The notes beneath the pieces were generated by a model. The model made no database searches, was not told the DNA's origin, and saw only the letters and a program-made list of their open reading frames with translations. The position numbers were made by a program, and so were the translations under genes. Source: Trichoplax sp. H2 (lineage: Eukaryota). Taken from it: a stretch of 64,000 bases of DNA. Positions within the stretch are counted from its first letter, which is position 1. Each line of letters starts with the position of its first letter. Below, one piece after another: positions 3,340-61,035 of this stretch. The stretch spans positions 310,001 to 374,000 of the forward strand of contig NOWV01000001.1 of NCBI GenBank assembly GCA_003344405.1, in the 5' to 3' direction.

Positions 3340-3600
3340 TCATGTATCGGACTGATGGATGGACTAGAAGTTGTACAGTACTGTACATTGTACAATGTAC
3401 AGTGCAGTATACTGTACACTGTACCGATCGTACTGTAATTGCAATTCACCGGCTTAACACGCACCCTATAGAAGATGGTGTAGCTATCAGACTATTTGGA
3501 ACAGTATACTATACTGAGTATAGAATACAGTCGACTACTTTCTTCTAGCTAGAGCCTACAGTATACTATATCAGACAGCAGGATACGATAGTGGTTTTTG
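3340..3600. promoter_or_regulatory. Divergent POLR1A/COA7 promoter region with a GTACAGTA/TACTGTAC motif array
   Basis: Start codons are head-to-head at 2954 (-) and 3771 (+). Dense tgtacagtactgtaca / cagtatactgtac repeats at ~3370-3570. Confidence 0.6.
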
Positions 3601-22865: not shown

Positions 22866-24823
22866 TAACACATACTATGAAAGATTACGGAGATGGGGAG
22901 TGCAACATGCGTTGCACCAAGTGGCTAATTTCAACTCGATCTATCCATGATAGTCATATTGTATAGAACTGATGCGTTACTTGCGTACACATACAGCGTT
23001 TTGACCGCCGATGGAGAAATAATTTCAAAATTTGATTACTATAACCCTGTTAAGACTGCTTGAAGTAAACGCAGCACTATATCTACAACAGTACTGTCAT
23101 CGATTTATGAGCATAAAATTGAGAATATTAATATTGATTCCATTTCTGCAAAAATCATTCTACGGTGCTGCATGCTGCAACACAATCTGCGCTATTTTAA
23201 TATTATTATTGTTTATTAATTGAATATTTAGTTGGTTGACTTTTTCCTAATCTAGCAGGGATCAACCATAATGTAAGGCCCCGAACACCTAGCGTAGCTT
23301 TGGCCAGGGTTTAACAATTAATTGAAGATTTATGGATGACCAAGCTCTATTACTTTATTACAGTGTGAGACAAATAGTGAAAATCAACACCAAATGGTTA
23401 ACTATGCGAGTACTGTATACGCGCATTTTCACCAACGCTGAGCCAATAGTACCGATAAACGCCTTTTTCTAGCCTAAATTGAATATTCTAGTTATAAATG
23501 AAATAAACAATAAATCTAAGAAATAAGTTAATTAAAAACATTTTACCTTCAACTACCTAAATGTCAGTCTTATCATCATTACACACAGTACAGTGCTATA
23601 TTCAGTCAGCAATCCACAAAAACATTTATCGCTAGAAGTTAGGAGTAAACTTTTACGAAAGTAAATCAAACCCAAATCAAAGTATAGCAATGCTCTATAC
23701 TATCTCATTCATTGTCTCCATCTACAATCCGTTAACGTCTATACGGACATACACATCCTGTAAATAAAATCACATTCAATTCAATCAAAGTATTCACAGC
23801 TTTAGGAGTGTAATATTTGATCCATGTTTTTTTTAATTAATTGTCTAACACGAAGAGTGATATAGAGAATAACTTCTTGCATTTAATATTGATGCGTTAA
23901 CAAAATATTTACGCATTACATATCTTGTTCATCAGTAGCGAACAAATAACAAATGTCAATAGAATGGCAATTTTACAAGCTGCACAAACAGTATGGGAGA
24001 TTAATTTCAAGTATACGCCTAATGATTGTACCATAGCTAGAAGTACAATTTGAATATGGCCAATAATAAGGTATTCATTTAATTAAAACGGAATTTTTGA
24101 ACTATAGGCAGTCTTGTTGCTAAGACCAATTAATGCTAATTTGTTGTCAATCAGTATCAGTAACAACTTCCTCTTATATAATGGAAGATAGTATAAAACC
24201 TGATGATTTAAAGCAATCGTATAATGCCCATAACTAATTTATCGAGCATCGTTTCGAGCTTTTTACAAAAGAATTTAAAACATTTTACAATCACTCATAA
24301 CAGTTCTAGCATTTCTAGCATTCGCTATGATAGCAATAAGAATTTTTGTTCTCAAACGATTATGTCGGTAAACGAGATAATTAAATAACGTGCAATACTT
24401 TCAATAACATTCGTGGTAAGAAAAGAATTCTAGCAGTACAGCACAATATAGTTAGGTTTATACAGTAAAAAGTATTATATTAATTTTTTTATCAGTATTA
24501 TAGGTAGAAAATTACTATTCGTAACTTTATCTTTAGCAGACCCAAATACCACAGTAGGGCTATAAGGACATAATCTATTCAGGTAATCGGTTGAATCTTA
24601 GTGAAATAATTTCATGACATAGAGCATGGAAACATAAAATATAAATAATCATAGATTAATAAAGTATTAAGGATAAAATGAACGATTCCTTGTCCAACAA
24701 ATACACCTAGGTGCCCTATCACCAAATCTGCATTATATGCATACCATCAAAAAATTACAAAACTAACAAAGTTATAATATTGACGTTAATACCAGATGAT
24801 GAATAACCTACCATACAAATACA

Positions 24824-27800
24824 TTAATACAAAGTAATTCCTGATGCTTTCATACTTGATTGCAGAATATCAATATACGAAAATATTTTTAAAGCCGGTC
24901 CTAATTTTAGTCCCAAGGCCGATATAACGTCTGATCTATTTAACAGGAAAAGTGCTTTGCCATCAATCTCCTGCAATAAATAATAAAAAAAATTATAATC
25001 AGTTGTTGTGCGGTAAATTTATCATAATAAGTGAATTCTGATTAAAGTAAAAGCAGTTTAATGTGCGCGATAACCTGAACTAAAAATACATGGCTAAATT
25101 CAGCAAAACCGAGCTTTTGAAAAACTAATGCTACATCGGACACTTTCCATTCCAGCGGATTGGGAAGATCCTAATTTATAACCGTAGATAAAATTCAGTT
25201 GATTGTAACCTATGTTGTACTAATATTGTCAGCATATTTTGTTAAGTTATATCTTCAAAACCTGTATTGCATCAGTTAATTTTTCAATAATTCGTCTTGA
25301 TATGAGTTTCTTTGATTTATACATAGCCGAGGGGGATGATTCGGTACAATACCCACCATTTGTTGCATTGCCTAATAGGGTAAAGTGTGAATTAGTAACC
25401 GGAAAGAAGTAAATTATTCTCTGGTAAATGGATATCGGTGCTAATGTTGAAAACATTTACCGTAGTTTGATACATTATTATAAGAAGTCGATAAACCGCT
25501 TTCTTCGTAAGTATCATCACGACGACAACAATGACAGATCCATTGACCTATTTTCAAGACATACGCTTTCATTACTATGAATACAGAGAAAATTTATCGA
25601 TATAATGAGTTCAATTTTAATCGCTAGAATTAATGTAATAAAAAAATGAACAATACCTTTCGGAGTTTCAGATAGCGGAGGATCTGTACATTCCATATGA
25701 CAACCTTTATCACAGGCATCGCACAACAAAAGGCTATCCTATATTTAAAAGTATAACGTCATTTTCACGCTAGTGTCTATATGTTATATGCGTATATACA
25801 GTTCTACCATGCGCGACTACTGTACCATTCATTATAGAGCCTAATGGAAATGATCAATTTGTAACTTATACTAACCGGACGACCAGCTTCTTGACAAACA
25901 AAACAAATTTTACAATCATTGCATTGCCATTTATCTGAGGCTAATATTTTGGCAATTAGGTGATAGTTGTATCCTAAGCAAGATGGATGTACTATAAAGC
26001 AACAACAGAAATGTTCCCCCGCAAAAATTAGCATTGACAGACTGATTAACAATTTTAGACAACGATTGAATTGGCTCAGGTCAATGTATCCATCACTTAT
26101 CTCTGTAGTGATAAAAAAAATTTCACGAAGAATAGATTTAAAATGAACTACTATTATACTGAATACCTTTTCTTCTACAATCGGAGCAAAATATAATCAC
26201 GTCACCCTGATCATCAAGAATAGGACTAGAAACTTGTAGACATAAATAACATTTGTCGCCTTGGTCTTGGTTACTGATTTGAACATTCTTATTAATAATA
26301 TTGGCCGCTTGCTAATGCGCAATATAAAGAATTTCCCGTATTAGAATAGGATTGCAACTCTTATTATTCTTATTATCCATAATACATATCACAAATTTTG
26401 AGTTGTCCTTGGTATTTTAGTTGAGTACGATCAGGTATGTATTGCAGTATTTTGCAACATGTAGAAAATTATTCAATATTAAATTACCGTCATAGTTGAG
26501 GAAAAATTGTCGTTGTTATGCTCACCTTTTCAATTATAACATAACGATTATCTTTATTTTTCATAACTAGTTTGTTTTGGATTGCTTGATCGAGTGATCG
26601 GCGTATATAGCGAGCTAAGAGAGCACCAGAATGCTCATTTGAAACTTCTTTCACAATTTCCTTAAAAAATACTCCTGATGGATTATTAGCTATAAAAGTT
26701 AAAACCAAATCATCCAATTCCTGATAATTGATTAAGGAACCATGGATTGACAAATTCTACGAGCCAAATTTATGATGAGAGGAGAAGGAAAAAAAAAAAT
26801 AATAAAATTAAAACCGGTTTCAGTTCAATTGAATGGAAAGATACCGTTTAATAAACTATATTGTAAAGAGTAACAAGGTTGCATTGCCGATGTAATGGTC
26901 AAAGTACTAGGGTCGTAAGTTATCGACGTTTTCATATTTGCAAGAGGTGATAGGGTGCTAGATTGAACATGCAATTTTCTAACTGCTAACTTTGTTTTAT
27001 GAAGCAATTTGAATAAGGCAATGACATCATAAAGATGTCAATCTCTACTCTACTCTACTACTATCATGGACCGACTGTATGTTGTTTTTGCCTTTTATTT
27101 TAATTTACTTTCATCCTTATTTTTCTGCGTTGTCTATTTTATTTCACACTCTGACCACTGCACGACATTATGAATTCATTGTCTTGACTACTTATTTGTC
27201 CTCTTTCCACGATATCATGCTAATACTGCAAGGGTAGACAAGTGTATAAGATAGAGAGAAATGGTAGACTAGATAGAAAATGGACAACAATACTTGTAAA
27301 AATGTAGACAGCATTTGCAGGATTGTTTGAACCCTTCTCGACACCATTTTTAGGCAACAATGAATAGAATAGAAGATTGAATGTATTCCTTGTACCGTCT
27401 ACTACGGTAGACTAGTGTACAAGATCGAAATGGTGGACTAAATGAGAGTATGGACAACAATGCTAGTGAAAATGGAGACAGCATTTGCAGGATTGTTGGA
27501 AGCCTTCTCGGTGGCATTTTTAGGCAACAATGAATAGAATAGAAGATTGAATGTATTCCTTGTCTCGTCTACTTTAGTCAAGTGAGAATGAAAGCAATGT
27601 TGGACTTACCAAGGTACTGACAACTTCTGGATTAATCCTATAATACAATTTGTCAATTTTTTGTATTTTGCCGCTATTAATCGCTCTTTTCAAAGCCATT
27701 TTAACGTGCTTACGTAATAGTACACCTTGATAATGGCTTGATATATATTTCTCAATGGATCTTAAGTGAACCCCCACATCAGGATTGGGACAAGAAACCA

Positions 27801-28278
27801 AGCAATTGTAGATCATTCGAGTTAATTCCGCGGTATTAATAACATATCCTTTACGACGTAAATTGCTACTAGCGACATTGTCGTGATTGTTGCTACTATG
27901 ATGATGTTCATAACTTTTACTACTCGCTTTGGGATTGGGGGGTCGATCATTGTTGGCTGATGATGATGATCTTTTCTTCCTAGGCTTAATACGATTGGCT
28001 ATACGATATTTAACTCCACCACTACGGCTGCTATCTTTGCGTATTTTACCATCAGCTACTAATTTGGATAAAATTTTAATTGTTGTCTGTGCGGGTATTC
28101 GAAATCGCTTCTGTAACATCTTAATAATATTGTCGTCATCGGCGCGGGCTTTTCTCTTGACTAAAGTGGTAATTGCTTCTTCAATGCAATTTTTCACTTC
28201 ACTAAATGTCAAATTACTTATAAGGTTGCTATTAGGCGTTGATTTCCTCTCTTCCATGTTACTGGCTATGGTGGCCAT
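24824..28278 (-). CDS. SAMD1: SAMD1/SAMD13-like chromatin reader, 560 aa: winged helix + two H15-like winged helices + double PHD finger + SAM; exons 28278-27610, 26756-26526, 26311-26167, 25991-25876, 25738-25657, 25547-25461, 25371-25262, 25170-25075, 24970-24824
   Basis: Nine GT-AG exons join in phase (1683 nt). [27 protein letters not shown]15-like: [11 protein letters not shown]...[13 protein letters not shown] and [11 protein letters not shown]...[13 protein letters not shown]. Double PHD: CYLC...CSDCRRKVHPSCL...[12 protein letters not shown]...[19 protein letters not shown]...[24 protein letters not shown]...[30 protein letters not shown]. The symbol is tentative. Confidence 0.88.
27233..27573. 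repeat. Two ~170-bp tandem copies in intron 1 of the SAMD1-like gene
   Basis: tggacaacaat...gacagcatttgcaggattgtt...catttttaggcaacaatgaatagaatagaagattgaatgtattccttgt...gtctact at ~27281 and ~27451. Confidence 0.92.
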
Positions 28279-28479
28279 GTTGATGTTAGTGGCAGTTTCA
28301 ATGTTTCAATGAAAATCTTTTTCTCTTTTTTTACCTTTCGTCTCTCTTGATGGTGTCCACCACTACTGTGTCACAGTAGGTCCAAATACCACTGGATTGA
28401 GTACACCGCTAGTCAACACTATGGACAAGAGCGGCCACTTCAGAATGAAAAAGTTCCTGCAAGCCGTATCCATATATAC

Positions 28480-29270
28480 GCCGTACAGTCCAGTAGACAG
28501 TCGTTGTCTTGCGCTCTAGCTCGGAACGTCCAGTACCGTCGTGTGAAAACAGCTGTGCTATGGCGTCCAGTACCGTACCGTACTGTCCATGACAGGACAA
28601 TGTATACAGTAATGGACCGTATTGTACCGCAGATATCTTATCTGGTACAGTACCGTACTGTACGGTGGTACTGATACAGCCAACGGTATTGTACTGGACG
28701 GTCCTGGACAGAGCGTGCGCAGTATAACCATCGGCCAGGAAATTTGCCTAGCTTATTCGGTACAGTACTGTACTGTACGGTGTCAGCCAGTTCTCAGTAC
28801 AGTACTCAAATTGAATATACTGTACAGTACATACTGTACACTCTACAGATAGATCAAGGAATTATTCAGCTTTATATTCGTACCATTTTTTTGTTGACTC
28901 TGGTGAAATTTTTTTTGGCACCTTAAAAGACTAACGTACAGTACTGTACAGTGTGAAAAGAAAAGATTGACAATCTACTGTACCGTAAAAACAGCTAAAG
29001 ATGTGTAAAATGAAATGTCAACATTTTCACCATCATCATATCAAGATGACATACTGGAGCAGTAAGATGACATACTCTTTGGCATACTATTGTTATCACC
29101 ACGTCTGTCTGGACTCTCTGTCTGTTGTTATCGTTTTCCCAATCATTCCAGTATCACATGTACAGTACACTTGTACAGTTGTACACACACTATACACTAC
29201 TGTAAAAGCACTCCAGTACTACGGCACTCATTTCTAATGTAGTACACTACACTACAGTACAGCATGAAAT
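28480..29270. promoter_or_regulatory. GTACAGTA/TACTGTAC motif arrays upstream of the SAMD1-like gene
   Basis: Dense cagtaccgtaccgtactgt, ggtacagtactgtactgtac and atactgtacagtacatactgtac at 28480-28990; second cluster at ~29158-29262. Confidence 0.6.
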
Positions 29271-29972: not shown

Positions 29973-30398
29973 CGTAATGCATTTTAATTGACGTCTGGCC
30001 ATTCTGGGCCACAGTAGGATACTGAACAGCTTTGATCATTATGGAAGAATAATTACACAATGTGCATTGTTGTCGTACATAGCACCACTACACAACAGTG
30101 TTGTATGGGCGTGAGCCATACTGCAGCCCCTTATTAGGCTTTTCAATTTGGCTAAAATTTTACGAATACAGATCACTATAACCTTGAGCAATTGCCACTT
30201 GATATTTTTTCTAAATTTGGACTGCATTATTGACTTAGTTGATCTCTTTGCAATTTCCAATACAAACCATACGTATACGTTCAATTCATCCCAAGTCGCC
30301 ATGAAATAGTGGTCGAAAATGTCATCATAAAATCAACCAAAACCAGTCAAAGTCTGCAGCATTGTACTGGAAGTCAGTACGTCCGTGGCAGGCGCGTC

Positions 30399-30405
30399 TA
30401 TAAAT
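30399..30405 (+). promoter_or_regulatory. Candidate TATA box of the GST gene
   Basis: TATAAAT preceded by GC-rich ggcaggcgcgtc, ~80 bp upstream of the ATG at 30480. Confidence 0.4.
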
Positions 30406-30479
30406 ATTGTGGTGCGTCATCGGAAAGTTTCTTACGCACCACAAGTCGCCTGATCTTGCCAACGGAGAAAGAAGGAAAA

Positions 30480-31833
30480 ATGTCGAGCATTGATTTTTAT
30501 GCCCATCTTGCATCGCAGCCATGTCGTGCTGTGCAATTATTTATGAAAGCCAACAACATCCCTTTTAATTTTCACCTCATCGATTTAACCAAAGGTAGGG
30601 ATAGACTTAGGCACGCGGTATAGTAGACTGAAGGCAATTGTACAATGTACAGTATAGTAATAACACGGCATTATTAAATAAAGACTTCCAGGCTGTTTTT
30701 ATCTACTTTTGGGGGGATGTTCATTGTCCATAAATTAACAAAAGTACAGCACTATAATCCCCAATAGCAAACAAGATTCTATAATATTGTTGTTGTTAAC
30801 ATGTATGATGGCAATGTTGTTGCGATTGGGGAAGCAATGTTTGCATTACATAAACTTATTAAACTTATTGTTGTTAATACAACGTTACCAACACTGTTTG
30901 TGAAAATGTAAAACTTGACTGTGATGCTGTTCTGCATCTGCGTAGGCGAACAAACTAAAGAAGACTTTCAAAAAGTTAACCCTATGGGGAAAGTTCCAGC
31001 CATTAAGGATGGAGATTTTTGTCTTGCAGAGGGGTAAGTACTAAAATAGTACAGTAACCTAAATTGATAGACTTTGAGCTTCAGTAATCAACGAGAAAGT
31101 CCCTTAACTGTTACGCCCATAGTCTTCAAGTCAGACACGATCGAGTGGTTAGTTACTGTTAACTTACTAGTGATATTCGTATCGTAGGTAACTTTTATTC
31201 GGTAATTACCCATTATTCATCAATTCAGTAATCAATATATTATATATATATATATAATTACCTAGTATAGCCATTGTTCAGTATTTGGCCGCTAAATATT
31301 CTACGCCCGATCACTGGTATCCTAAAGACGCTGCAGCAAAAGCAAGAGTAAATGAGTACTTAAACTGGCATCACAGCAATACTAGAGGTGGTGCTACCGG
31401 TGTATTCTTCAATGCCGTGAGTACTAGTTTTGCGATTGATCAATCATCTATACTTTTGAAATAGGCAGCCTATAAGTGTGAATTTTGACCCCATTAGGTG
31501 ATCTTACACCAGATAAGGAAGCAACCCAGAAATGAAGCTGCTATAAAGGAAGCCAAAGGAAAATTAACTGTAGCCCTCGATCTGTTCGAGAACTACTTCG
31601 TTAAGGATCGTCTATTCATTGGCGGTAGTGAAATTTGTATTGCTGATTTGTTCGCGGTTTGTGAGTTTACTCAGCTAGACCAAATCGGTATTGATGTTGG
31701 CAAGAATAGAGCCAACGTCAAGGCATGGAAAGACCGAGTTAGTGCACAGTTAGGAGCACATTTCGTAGAAGCCCACGAGGTTATAATTAATTTTGCTAAA
31801 AGTGCAAACTTTACTCCTGAACCGTTTGAATAA
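30480..31833 (+). CDS. GSTT: Glutathione S-transferase, theta class, 229 aa; exons 30480-30594, 30946-31033, 31266-31416, 31498-31833
   Basis: N-terminal SQPCRAV with the catalytic Ser; VNPMGKVPAIKDGDFCLAE; YSTPDHWYPKD...ARVNEYLNWHH; FIGGSEICIADLFAVCE. Exons are phase-consistent. Confidence 0.95.
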
Positions 31834-47009: not shown

Positions 47010-48000
47010 ATACTTATACAGTCCAGTACAGTACGGCAGCGTACAGTACGTGGTGAAGTATACTGTACACTGTACACTGTACACTACAGTGTTGTACTGT
47101 TCTAACCTCGTTTGCAGAGGTCTGCTGGCAATCGTCAGTACTGTACACTGTACTGTATGACCTGTTATGATCATACAGTATACTGTACTCCAGTGACGAC
47201 TGACCCAGTCAGTCAGTGACCATACCTGCATCACTGAGGCCATCGATGATGGATGATGCTGCAAATAATACTGTGTGCCTGGCTCACCTTGGCGATACGA
47301 TAGGTCAGTTATCGTCCCATCTTAGTCGTGGTTTGCTGGCATAGGTTGCCTGTCTACAAGACTACAACTATGGTCTACGGTAATAATTTGATACTGTATC
47401 AGGGATTACTCAAAAAAAGAGACGGGACAGGACAACAGATTCAGTGCAAAATAACGTGCAAGCTTCTTATTTTGGGGCTGATGCTACTAGACTGTACGCT
47501 ACCCATCAAATCGTATACCATACTGCTTCAAACCAACTTAGTAGGCTAACAATAGCAGCTAATGTGGATGTCAATCGCAGAAAGTATAGTGTACCATGAC
47601 AGGCATGCGATACACCTGAAATGACCAGTAAAATAATCAGCCTCCACATTGTTAGTATAATTAACAACCGCTTCCTGCCTCATCTCTTTCTTTTTAGTAG
47701 TCCCTGGCCTTACTGTCGGCCGACTGCTACTGCTTGCTGCTATTACTGTCACACGAAATACTGTTAGAGATACGTACTGTCCTGTAGTGTACACTGTACA
47801 GTATAGGACCGTTCACCCGACAGCAACAATACTGCCACTAACCGTTACAATTTTCTTTTGGCGCTTTGGACTTTTCAAAGTAGTCTGCGCAGACTCTGTG
47901 CTAACTGTGAATCACAACAAATCATGACAGTTTGTACAGTACAAGTACTGTACACTACTATACAGTACAGTACAATGCACTGTACTGTACTGTACGTGAC
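47010..48000. promoter_or_regulatory. Two GTACAGTA/TACTGTAC motif arrays upstream of KIF2
   Basis: Clusters at ~47010-47195 (tactgtacactgtacactgtacac) and ~47755-48000 (cagtacagtacaatgcactgtactgtactgtac). KIF2 ATG is at 46929. Confidence 0.6.
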
Positions 48001-59574: not shown

Positions 59575-61035
59575 GGTACAGTACGGTACGATACAGATCC
59601 CATGGCTTTCACAGCGCTCTACAGTACGCGGTACTGTAGGCCACAGTACTTCGCACAGTGGCTTACAGTACTATGTGCTGTAGACTAGAGTTTAGAAAAA
59701 AAACATACTGTACTGTAGAGCGCTTATTTAACCCAGTATGGATGGTGGTGTCGCCAGTGATGGACGCTGCGGTCTCTACCGCCGCCATTTATTAATAGTA
59801 TAGTATCGTCAAACTTTCCATACAGATCCTTTTTTATTTTTTTTTTACTTGTATGCAACTTTTCTAGGGCCATCATTACTGTACGACGTACGTCCATACA
59901 AGGCGACAAGAAACGCTTGCTCATTGCTTTAGTCCCAATGATCAACAAAAGTAACTAGGAAAATCATTGCGACCAGGCCAATGAGCAAGCGTATCTTGTC
60001 GTCTTGTAATCATGCTCCTTTTTCTAGCATCTGTCAGCTAAATTGGATCACGTTTTTTAAGGATCCGTATTGTGCTGTAAAATCATTCTGTAAATAGTGT
60101 AACATCACGAGAGGGAGGATGCGAGGGTGTAGACGTGTAGGCTAAATAAATAAGTAAATAAATAAATGTACCCAGTAGAGATCTTCAGAGAGCGACCTAC
60201 GTCATGCCCATGACATGGGTACAGTACCAAAATTAGGTCCATCTGTACTACAGTATCGTGTCTTATTGTACTGTACTGTACACTCTGTAGTACAGTATAC
60301 TGTATGGTATGTACAGTACTGTACAGTTCTACACTATCGATTAGCGATCGACCCGCTGAAATGGCAGGAGAAAACCTACAGTACTCTACACTGTGTATAG
60401 TACAGTATGTACTGTACTGAAAGAGTGTACTGTACTGCAAGGAAGCCATGGGCTTCTTCTGTAGTACCTATTTTTGAATAGTTCATGGTCAACCATGGGT
60501 TTAAAGCAAAGTAAAATAGTATGAGTTACCCACTGTTAGCAGTAAATAAATAAAGAAATAACAGTAAGATAGTCAAGTCCAGCCCCAAGAATAGAGGGAG
60601 GGAGTTCCCTTCAAAAAATTCATCGTGTCAATCGACCTTAAGTAAGCAGTAATCGACCCAAGAGCGATCATTAGCTTTTGATTAGCTGACATTGATACCC
60701 GGACACAGGCAGCTACACGACTCCGTAACGCTGGCTGATCGATCAACTTCTTTCGGTCGAAGAAGAAATTAGCAAAGAGTAAAGTTGAGAGCTACGTAGA
60801 CAAACGAAATGATGCTATTCAAATGATAATAACTTTCATGACTGAAGTAAATGATTGCAGTACTTCTGCAAACTGAACCAGCGACTTGTAAGAGAAAATT
60901 CAAATTTTCTCTTATTTCTTTCTATAAATAAACATATTCTTTGACAAGCTTCTGACTGAATATGTTGTGTACACTAGAGACCCTTCGAGAGACAGTACAC
61001 TATACTGTACTGTATAACATACGGTACGGTACAAT
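59575..61035. promoter_or_regulatory. Three GTACAGTA/TACTGTAC motif arrays; candidate promoter region for OvoA and/or an unannotated transcript
   Basis: Clusters at ~59575-59720, ~60218-60440 and ~60990-61035, with the same vocabulary as the arrays upstream of POLR1A/COA7, TRIR, SAMD1-like and KIF2. Confidence 0.5.
59897..60008 (+). other. Long inverted repeat / hairpin with 46-nt arms and a 20-nt loop
   Basis: Arm 1 is 59897-59942 (tacaaggcgacaagaaacgcttgctcattgctttagtcccaatgat). Arm 2 is 59963-60008 (atcattgcgaccaggccaatgagcaagcgtatcttgtcgtcttgta). They pair without gaps. Confidence 0.85.

Follow-up and report, generated by a model that had tools for sequence, protein, structure and literature searches.

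A placozoan gene annotated as the acetyltransferase KAT6A encodes a probable non-catalytic chromatin reader related to Lint-O and SAMD1

A minus-strand gene in a 64,000-nucleotide window of the Trichoplax sp. H2 genome (28278..24824; all coordinates are positions within this window, which is AT-rich eukaryotic DNA with a GC content of 0.29-0.41) is represented in the public record by a 557-residue protein that bears the name 'Histone acetyltransferase KAT6A [Trichoplax sp. H2]'. The label of a KAT6 acetyltransferase is wrong for this gene. The locus is best explained as the placozoan member of an animal-wide family that also includes Lint-O, SAMD1 (atherin) and a shark protein labelled SAMD13. 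On this reading, to which we assign a probability of about three in four, the Trichoplax protein has the full module set of the family, namely two winged helices (WH1 and WH2), a double PHD finger and a C-terminal sterile alpha motif (SAM) domain, has no catalytic domain and reads DNA and histone H3 to tether repressors that combine malignant brain tumour (MBT) repeats with a SAM domain. The gene structure, the single spliced RNA, the domains, the lack of a MYST domain, the family membership and the residue conservation are direct observations; judged from its characterised relatives, the protein is most likely a non-catalytic, polymerising reader of DNA and histone H3 that recruits MBT-SAM repressors.

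Reconstruction from stop-to-stop open reading frames and splice signals gives nine exons, all in phase and joined across GT-AG introns (Table 1). The spliced coding sequence of 1683 nucleotides encodes 560 residues and contains one stop codon, at its end. The RNA evidence consists of contigs from four public runs that were aligned to positions 24400-28700; three of these are RNA-Seq runs from one study and the fourth is only presumed to be RNA. All eight coding junctions were recovered at the predicted sites in contigs from the three RNA-Seq runs. The joint 25547/25657 was seen in three runs and the junction 25991/26167 in two RNA-Seq runs, with matching loose ends in the third. A single contig of 1930 nucleotides (run X6) spans 24812..28517 across every junction, so that, to the extent that contigs allow, the winged-helix exon and the SAM exons belong to a single spliced molecule. 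Spliced joints cannot derive from contaminating DNA. This is a real, expressed gene, and the five-module protein of 560 residues in nine in-phase exons that the first-pass annotation of this stretch had proposed is borne out at all eight junctions.

An artefact in which an adjacent KAT6-like reader gene and a small SAM gene were merged is extremely improbable. Such a merger would fit the mammalian SAMD13, which is a SAM-only protein (PMC9535798; here and below, papers are cited from excerpts), and a contig that runs over two genes is no proof of a single transcript. However, the eight in-phase junctions stand in one contig with no stop ahead of the SAM domain, an independent public gene model links the same exons, and many species have proteins of this build, known from transcripts as well as from genomes.

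Two further observations concern the transcribed region itself. An RNA contig extends past 24400, beyond the intron in the 3' untranslated region (UTR). Intron 1 holds a 170-bp tandem duplicate with 89% identity (27275-27403 and 27445-27573), and a contig from one RNA run omits exactly one repeat unit (27344 to 27515), a pattern that points to a differing copy number or a collapsed assembly.

Two acceptors of the public model disagree with the RNA-supported protein. For exon 2 it uses a downstream acceptor, by which the first 12 residues are lost (26721-26756), and for exon 6 an upstream acceptor at 25574, which adds nine residues inside the second PHD finger (PHD2; 25548-25574). Three RNA runs favour the acceptors at 26756 and 25547 over the public ones. 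The nine-residue insert of the public model has no counterpart in the solved double PHD finger of KAT6A, where the alignment shows a gap, and with the RNA-supported exon 6 junction the usual PKGxWxC motif is recovered. Because the RNA acceptors and the PHD2 alignment both agree with it, the 560-residue model is the better of the two.

Domain assignments come from Pfam searches of the individual exons and of the public protein (P0001) and from an AlphaFold2 (AF2) model calculated from a 57-row alignment. In the public protein Pfam recognizes SAMD1_WH (PF21524) at residues 32-81 (35.8 bits, cut-off 24.5), Linker_histone at residues 154-208 (26.8 bits, cut-off 22.4), PHD in two stretches that correspond to two PHD fingers (50.9 bits) and SAM_1 at residues 484-543 (27.0 bits, cut-off 23). 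In the AF2 model WH1 has three helices and a two-strand hairpin, with predicted local distance difference test (pLDDT) values of 89-97, and WH2 has the same topology (pLDDT 88-96); the model is also confident for the double PHD finger and for the SAM domain (pLDDT 90-98 in the latter). Neither DPF1-3_N (Requiem) nor a SAY domain is matched in this protein by Pfam, and MOZ_SAS (PF01853) and zf-MYST (PF17772) have no Pfam match at E <= 1 in the exons or in the public protein. Only 63 residues separate the end of PHD2 (residue 422) from the start of the SAM domain (residue 486), which leaves no space for a MYST domain of roughly 270 residues. The earlier claim that the protein lacks an acetyltransferase therefore holds, and of the modules proposed with it Pfam recovers the winged helix, one H15 domain, the double PHD finger and the SAM domain.

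The remaining module, a second H15 domain in exon 2, is the weak part of that proposal. The exon 2 segment has pLDDT values of 41-60 in the model from the 57-row alignment and, when folded alone by AF2 from the single sequence, adopts a three-helix, two-strand order with a mean pLDDT of 56.7. It has no Pfam match, no match among PDB sequences at E <= 10 and no BLASTP alignment with WH2. Foldseek returned nothing at E <= 0.001, and the weak rows at the top of its output are winged-helix proteins. A profile comparison with hhalign aligned exon 2 with the WH2 profile at 29% probability (E 5.9e-4, 51 columns in register), compared with 0.3% and 0.7% for the WH1 and SAM control profiles. The family consensus has no conserved module at this position. 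Exon 2 is thus weakly supported as a putative third, WH2-like winged helix which, if real, would be an addition of the Trichoplax lineage.

The nearest solved structures differ from module to module. Against the PDB, WH1 matches the SAMD1 winged helix with 23.3 bits (E 5.9e-4) and KAT6A WH1 with 13.3 bits (E 0.81). The SAM domain scores 60.8 bits against SAMD1/atherin, followed by Ph (43.5), L3MBTL3 (41.4), Scm (36.4) and Sfmbt (32.8). Both modules are therefore fairly described as of the SAMD1 type, as the first-pass annotation had read them, and the SAM domain is nearer to that of SAMD1 than to those of L3MBTL3 and Scm. For the double PHD finger, the best match is KAT6A (1.3e-20) and then KAT6B, before DPF3 (3e-17), DPF2 and PHF10 (1.5e-13).

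This last result, the public name and the succession of WH1, H15 domain and double PHD finger, which is that of the KAT6 N-terminus, are what would speak for a KAT6A-type acetyltransferase as labelled, or for a truncated KAT6 paralog specific to Trichoplax that acquired a SAM domain. However, the missing MOZ_SAS and zf-MYST matches and the short gap between PHD2 and the SAM domain stand against this. Nine proteins with WH1 and a double PHD finger and no SAM domain were checked, of which eight carry both MOZ_SAS and zf-MYST and are therefore true KAT6 proteins; the ninth is a fragment of 420 residues. The catalytic reading is refuted by an RNA-supported protein without a MYST domain, and a truncation specific to Trichoplax is refuted by orthologs in other phyla: the same build is found in eight further phyla, and trees of WH1 and of the double PHD finger separate it from KAT6. 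We consider either form of this explanation highly improbable.

The family was gathered by an exhaustive phmmer search of 1.84 billion representative sequences, which returned 2123 proteins at E <= 1e-3, of which 41 reached E <= 1e-30. The best matches are mostly 380-640 residues long and align in a single segment that covers the double PHD finger and the SAM domain, with 35-42% identity. Word-indexed searches recovered little, with exon 1 finding its own record only, the whole protein one relative and the 57-row profile six proteins. Among the 57 top full-length matches Pfam found PHD in all 57, SAM_1 in 48, SAMD1_WH in 46 and Linker_histone in seven, and MOZ_SAS is not among the 14 Pfam families listed for them. 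A set of 160 proteins was then classed with custom hidden Markov models (HMMs) made from the 57-row alignment, a procedure that is circular for those 57 rows: 98 combine a double PHD finger with a SAM domain, 20 have WH1 and a SAM domain without the PHD pair, 24 have WH1 and a double PHD finger without a SAM domain, and 18 fall into other classes.

Names were checked for 30 of these proteins (nine of them nameless) and for one more from the whole-protein search. The WH1-WH2-double PHD-SAM build is present in named proteins of 15 other species from eight further phyla, which makes nine animal phyla in total. They include the arthropods Oratosquilla, Rhipicephalus, Ischnura and Onthophagus, the molluscs Argonauta (two genes), Gigantopelta and Elysia, the annelid Owenia, the brachiopod Lingula (two genes), the nemertean Tubulanus, the corals Montipora foliosa and M. 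capricornis, the sea star Patiria and the fluke Paragonimus (2033 residues). Their labels read 'KAT6A-like', 'KAT6B-like', 'MYST3' or 'uncharacterized', and that of the beetle Onthophagus is 'sterile alpha motif domain-containing protein 1' ('SAMD1 isoform X2'). ESM Atlas clusters of 63-90 members from molluscs and arthropods have the same Pfam set and were automatically named 'Histone acetyltransferase' and 'Atherin'. The forecast that such proteins would be mislabelled as KAT6 has thus come true for this gene and for its relatives.

Trees were calculated for the separate modules. For the double PHD finger, 54 rows were picked from 120 (26 family members, 17 of KAT6 type and 11 others, including multi-PHD proteins and the DPF1-3-type match P0141, which carries DPF1-3_N), with long-branch and many unnamed rows dropped. 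In the careful tree of these rows a branch with support 98/94 separates all 26 family rows, including the Trichoplax protein, from the KAT6, DPF1-3 types and others, which show no resolution among themselves. As this tree splits the family from KAT6, the PHD pair of the family appears as a group of its own and not as a recent KAT6 copy, and the trees do not place KAT6 as its nearest relative. In the WH1 tree (102 rows), a weak tree made by a quick method, 21 of 22 KAT6-type rows group together in a clade that excludes the family and SAMD1-like rows (support of 94 in the Shimodaira-Hasegawa-like approximate likelihood-ratio test), and 19 of the 20 rows with WH1 and a SAM domain form a clade (87) among the family rows. 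The SAM tree (116 rows, quick method, rooted with one Scm-like outgroup row only) places the Trichoplax protein among the family rows; here the 20 WH1 + SAM rows form a clade, with the shark protein as its earliest branch and the sea-star protein as its sister (87). A careful tree of concatenated WH1 and SAM domains (28 rows) contains a clade of ten of the 11 SAMD1-like rows (99/91) and has a polytomy as its backbone.

The 20 proteins with WH1 and a SAM domain and without the PHD pair point to the vertebrate SAMD1 proteins. Four of them are named, all from fishes. For the link to SAMD1, the collinear order of modules is stronger evidence than the trees. The shark protein P0107, named 'SAMD13 isoform X2', has no PHD pair but contains WH1, a SAM domain and a WH2 that is full-length and carries an insert; the HMM of the invertebrate WH2 matches the protein over its full length with 40.3 bits. 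The same HMM matches part of five more, vertebrate SAMD1-like proteins of this class (P0121, P0128, P0139, P0124 and P0108), and exactly these five carry, in the same place, a strong match to Pfam SAMD1_SHD, the 'small helical domain' of SAMD1 (PF24971; 81-115 bits). Two members without a WH2 match are also without this domain. A profile-profile comparison with hhalign aligned SAMD1_SHD with the invertebrate WH2 at 94.7% probability (E 5.7e-8, 77 columns), compared with 0.1-0.3% for control profiles of WH1, the SAM domain and the double PHD finger. At the level of sequence profiles this proves the SAMD1 'small helical domain' to be a homolog of WH2. It follows from this match that vertebrate SAMD1-like proteins consist of WH1, a WH2 remnant and the SAM domain, and are short of the PHD pair only. 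The position of the shark protein, which branches off outside the main clade of SAMD1-like rows, points to SAMD13 as another reduced paralog; human SAMD13 is described as having a SAM domain and no PHD domains (PMC9535798). SAMD1 has been termed 'a vertebrate-specific protein' (PMC8115922), a statement that is contradicted at the level of the family by its invertebrate members.

The conservation of function-bearing residues was examined with a numbering that was fitted to the residues named in papers, all of which fit. WH1 is identical to SAMD1 at four of nine DNA-contact residues (R45, K46, R48 and R94), with a conservative change of R56 to Lys, and thereby keeps the Arg-Lys pair that reads CpG in the major groove. 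All 16 zinc ligands of the double PHD finger are present. Of the residues with which MOZ anchors A1 and R2 of histone H3, D282, D285, P301, G303 and W305 are identical and M300 is replaced by Thr, and three of the seven residues of the MOZ H3K14ac pocket are identical (L242, W257 and C259). Of the 14 SAM residues named for the polymer interface of SAMD1, on its ML and EH surfaces (PMC8115922), 11 are identical and three are changed conservatively (S492 to Ala, M496 to Leu and L502 to Ile), and both salt-bridge pairs are kept (R498-D500 and K514-D489).

These features suggest how the protein might act. As in SAMD1, WH1 would contact DNA with its conserved Arg-Lys pair, which lies at the end of helix 1, and WH2 may contribute an unspecific DNA contact. 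The double PHD finger, in which the anchor is conserved and the acyl-lysine pocket is altered, could hold the unmodified N-terminus of histone H3. The SAM domain is expected to build head-to-tail oligomers and to dock on the SAM domain of MBT-repeat repressors such as L(3)mbt. The resulting multivalent tethering of MBT repressors to chromatin would repress target genes, by analogy with the fly and mammalian relatives, for which this has been shown with Lint-O and L(3)mbt and with SAMD1 and L3MBTL3.

The published work on these relatives is consistent with such a role. The winged helix of SAMD1 binds unmethylated CpG, and its SAM domain polymerises and tethers L3MBTL3 (PMC8115922). Drosophila Lint-O (CG2662) consists of two PHD fingers and a SAM domain; Lint-O binds L(3)mbt SAM-to-SAM and represses L(3)mbt targets together with it, the SAM contact being required for the repression of vasa and aub, and deletion of the PHD pair abolishes the interaction with L(3)mbt (PMC9535798). 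CG2662 is also among the SAM proteins pulled down with Sfmbt (PMC9451159). The account of Lint-O names SAMD13 as its human relative at the level of BLAST, and its excerpted text mentions neither a winged helix nor SAMD1 nor KAT6 (PMC9535798). One of our matches comes from the blowfly Cochliomyia and bears the full name of Lint-O, 'L(3)mbt interactor in ovarian somatic cells'. It contains the PHD pair together with the SAM domain and groups with the family in the double PHD and SAM trees; WH1 and WH2 were not detected in it with the custom HMMs.

Several results weigh against the reading of the protein as a family member that reads DNA and H3 for MBT repressors. The quick tree of the full set of 120 double PHD rows gave no resolution, and in all of the trees the Trichoplax protein sits on a long branch. 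An approximately unbiased (AU) test (p = 0.43) did not separate trees in which the SAMD1-like rows are nested within the invertebrate rows from those in which they are sister to them. Four of the nine SAMD1 DNA-contact residues are changed (R43 to Val, Y87 to Arg, K88 to Ser and S92 to Lys), so CpG specificity may not hold, and four of the seven residues of the MOZ H3K14ac pocket are changed (S210 to Tyr, F211 to Leu, N235 to Arg and I260 to Asn), which makes the reading of acyl-lysine doubtful. A Lint-O mutant in eight PHD cysteines still repressed its targets (PMC9535798), and the role of the PHD pair is thus in doubt even in the fly.

The protein might also act as a non-catalytic decoy that competes with KAT6 for CpG-rich DNA and H3 tails and so antagonises acetylation directly, without recruitment of MBT proteins. 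The module types of the KAT6 reader block are present in the KAT6 order, and the residues with which MOZ anchors the H3 N-terminus are conserved. However, this proposal draws on shared module types and not on shared targets, the characterised relatives use SAM-SAM contacts with L(3)mbt or L3MBTL3 (PMC9535798, PMC8115922), the K14ac pocket is altered and WH1 is nearer to that of SAMD1 than to that of KAT6A. We regard it as unlikely, if less remote than an acetyltransferase or a merged gene; it is compatible with the recruitment of MBT-SAM repressors that we favour.

The distribution of modules also bears on the origin of the family. The module order common to both argues that the whole WH1-WH2-double PHD block is homologous in KAT6 and in this family. 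With odds that we place only slightly above even, the WH1-WH2-double PHD-SAM build would be the ancestral form of one pre-bilaterian gene that shared its reader block with KAT6 and carried a polymerising SAM domain in place of the enzyme. Lint-O, by loss of the winged helices, SAMD1, by loss of the PHD pair and shrinkage of WH2 into the 'small helical domain', and SAMD13 would then be reduced descendants. The idea of an ancestral SAMD1 architecture, raised by the first-pass annotation, is strengthened by the occurrence of the build in nine animal phyla and by the WH2 homolog that vertebrate SAMD1-like proteins keep.

With respect to novelty, the family already has studied fly and mammalian members and the gene itself is already annotated. 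The claim that the architecture is new is partly undone, as Lint-O has been characterised (PMC9535798) and the full build is present in many public proteomes. In open-licence PMC and bioRxiv texts we found none that unites Lint-O, SAMD1/SAMD13 and the KAT6 reader block (orthology databases may list such links), none that calls the central domain of SAMD1 a second winged helix, an identity that the excerpts of the SAMD1 literature examined do not state either, and nothing useful on KAT6, MYST or L3MBTL in Trichoplax. A review of double PHD fingers counts six mammalian proteins and, in the excerpts used, does not mention a SAM-bearing group; it derives all double PHD proteins from PHF10-type and DPF/MOZ-type ancestors (PMC8538644).

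If our reading is correct, Lint-O, SAMD1 and SAMD13, which have been studied separately, would be one family, of which the placozoan and other invertebrate proteins represent the undivided form. SAMD1 would then not be vertebrate-specific, in dispute with the published statement, the axis of reader and L(3)mbt repressor would be older than bilaterians, and animals would have an additional, SAM-linked class of double PHD finger proteins. The central structured part of SAMD1, hitherto unexplained, would gain an identity as a vestigial second winged helix. A widespread mis-annotation is corrected, in which proteins without the enzyme domain are called 'KAT6A/B-like acetyltransferase'. In placozoan biology this is an ordinary expressed chromatin gene; what it offers is a system for asking how the reading of DNA, the reading of histones and SAM polymerisation work together to place L(3)mbt-type repressors.

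Two features of the surrounding DNA were recorded. The 9-mer GTACAGTAC occurs 33 times in the window compared with 0.45 expected occurrences and clusters in GC-richer stretches (28645-29168, 47026-47995, 60219-60435 and 3373-3386). One cluster lies just upstream of the 5' end of the gene, where the RNA contig reaches 28517, and the 9-mer may be a promoter-region motif. Neighbouring open reading frame pieces at 30243-31833 on the plus strand resemble a theta-class glutathione S-transferase when read by eye.

Table 1. Exons and modules of the Trichoplax gene (positions within the 64,000-nucleotide window)
Feature	Position	Strand	Residues	Description
WH1	27991..28206	-	25-96	SAMD1-like winged helix; K41-R42-K43-A44-R45; Pfam SAMD1_WH; best PDB match SAMD1 WH 6LUI
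WH2	27628..27831	-	150-217	H15/linker-histone-type winged helix; Pfam Linker_histone
Exon 1	28278-27610	-	1-223	Start codon at 28278, WH1, basic/Ser-rich linker, WH2; RNA contig continuous over 27610-28517, joins 26756
Exon 2	26756-26526	-	224-300	Possible lineage-specific third winged-helix-like module; junctions present in RNA contigs
Exon 3	26311-26167	-	301-349	Linker and first half of PHD1; zinc ligands C321, C324, C342, C345
Exon 4	25991-25876	-		Second half of PHD1 and start of PHD2; RNA junctions
Exon 5	25738-25657	-		PHD2 core; Pfam PHD 29.2 bits from the single exon; RNA junctions
Exon 6	25547-25461	-		End of PHD2 and linker; RNA-supported acceptor 25547
Exon 7	25371-25262	-		Linker, low model confidence, partly helical; RNA junctions
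Exon 8	25170-25075	-		First half of SAM domain; RNA junctions
Exon 9, coding part	24970-24824	-		Second half of SAM domain; stop codon 24826-24824; Pfam SAM_1 on the exon
3' UTR intron	24597..24811	-		Joint 24596/24812 in three RNA runs; stop codon 12 nucleotides before the donor

The Trichoplax protein can be compared with five known systems. It shares with KAT6A and KAT6B (MOZ and MORF) and with Drosophila Enok the order of WH1, an H15-type WH2 and a double PHD finger, but its SAM domain stands where KAT6 has the MYST acetyltransferase domain and its zinc finger, and its WH1 and double PHD finger fall outside the KAT6 clade in the trees. The double PHD finger of DPF1-3 (BAF45b-d) and PHF10 belongs to the same fold class; these proteins carry DPF1-3_N or SAY and no winged helix or SAM domain, whereas the reverse is true of the Trichoplax protein. 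Like Lint-O, the protein combines a double PHD finger with a SAM domain of the same subtype behind it at the C-terminus, although the dipteran protein is without WH1 and WH2 and the Trichoplax protein has both, together with an extra insert. SAMD1 likewise begins with a SAMD1-type winged helix with the Arg-Lys CpG-reading pair, carries at its C-terminus a SAM domain with 11 of 14 interface residues in common and contains a central 'small helical domain' that is homologous, as judged by profile comparison, to the WH2 of the Trichoplax family. It differs in having no double PHD finger, in its long disordered Pro/Ala-rich regions and in the minor-groove residues Y87 and K88, which are not conserved in the Trichoplax WH1. 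SAMD13 has the same SAM subtype and no PHD pair. Compared with these relatives, the Trichoplax gene has every module of the set, of which flies and vertebrates would each have lost a part.

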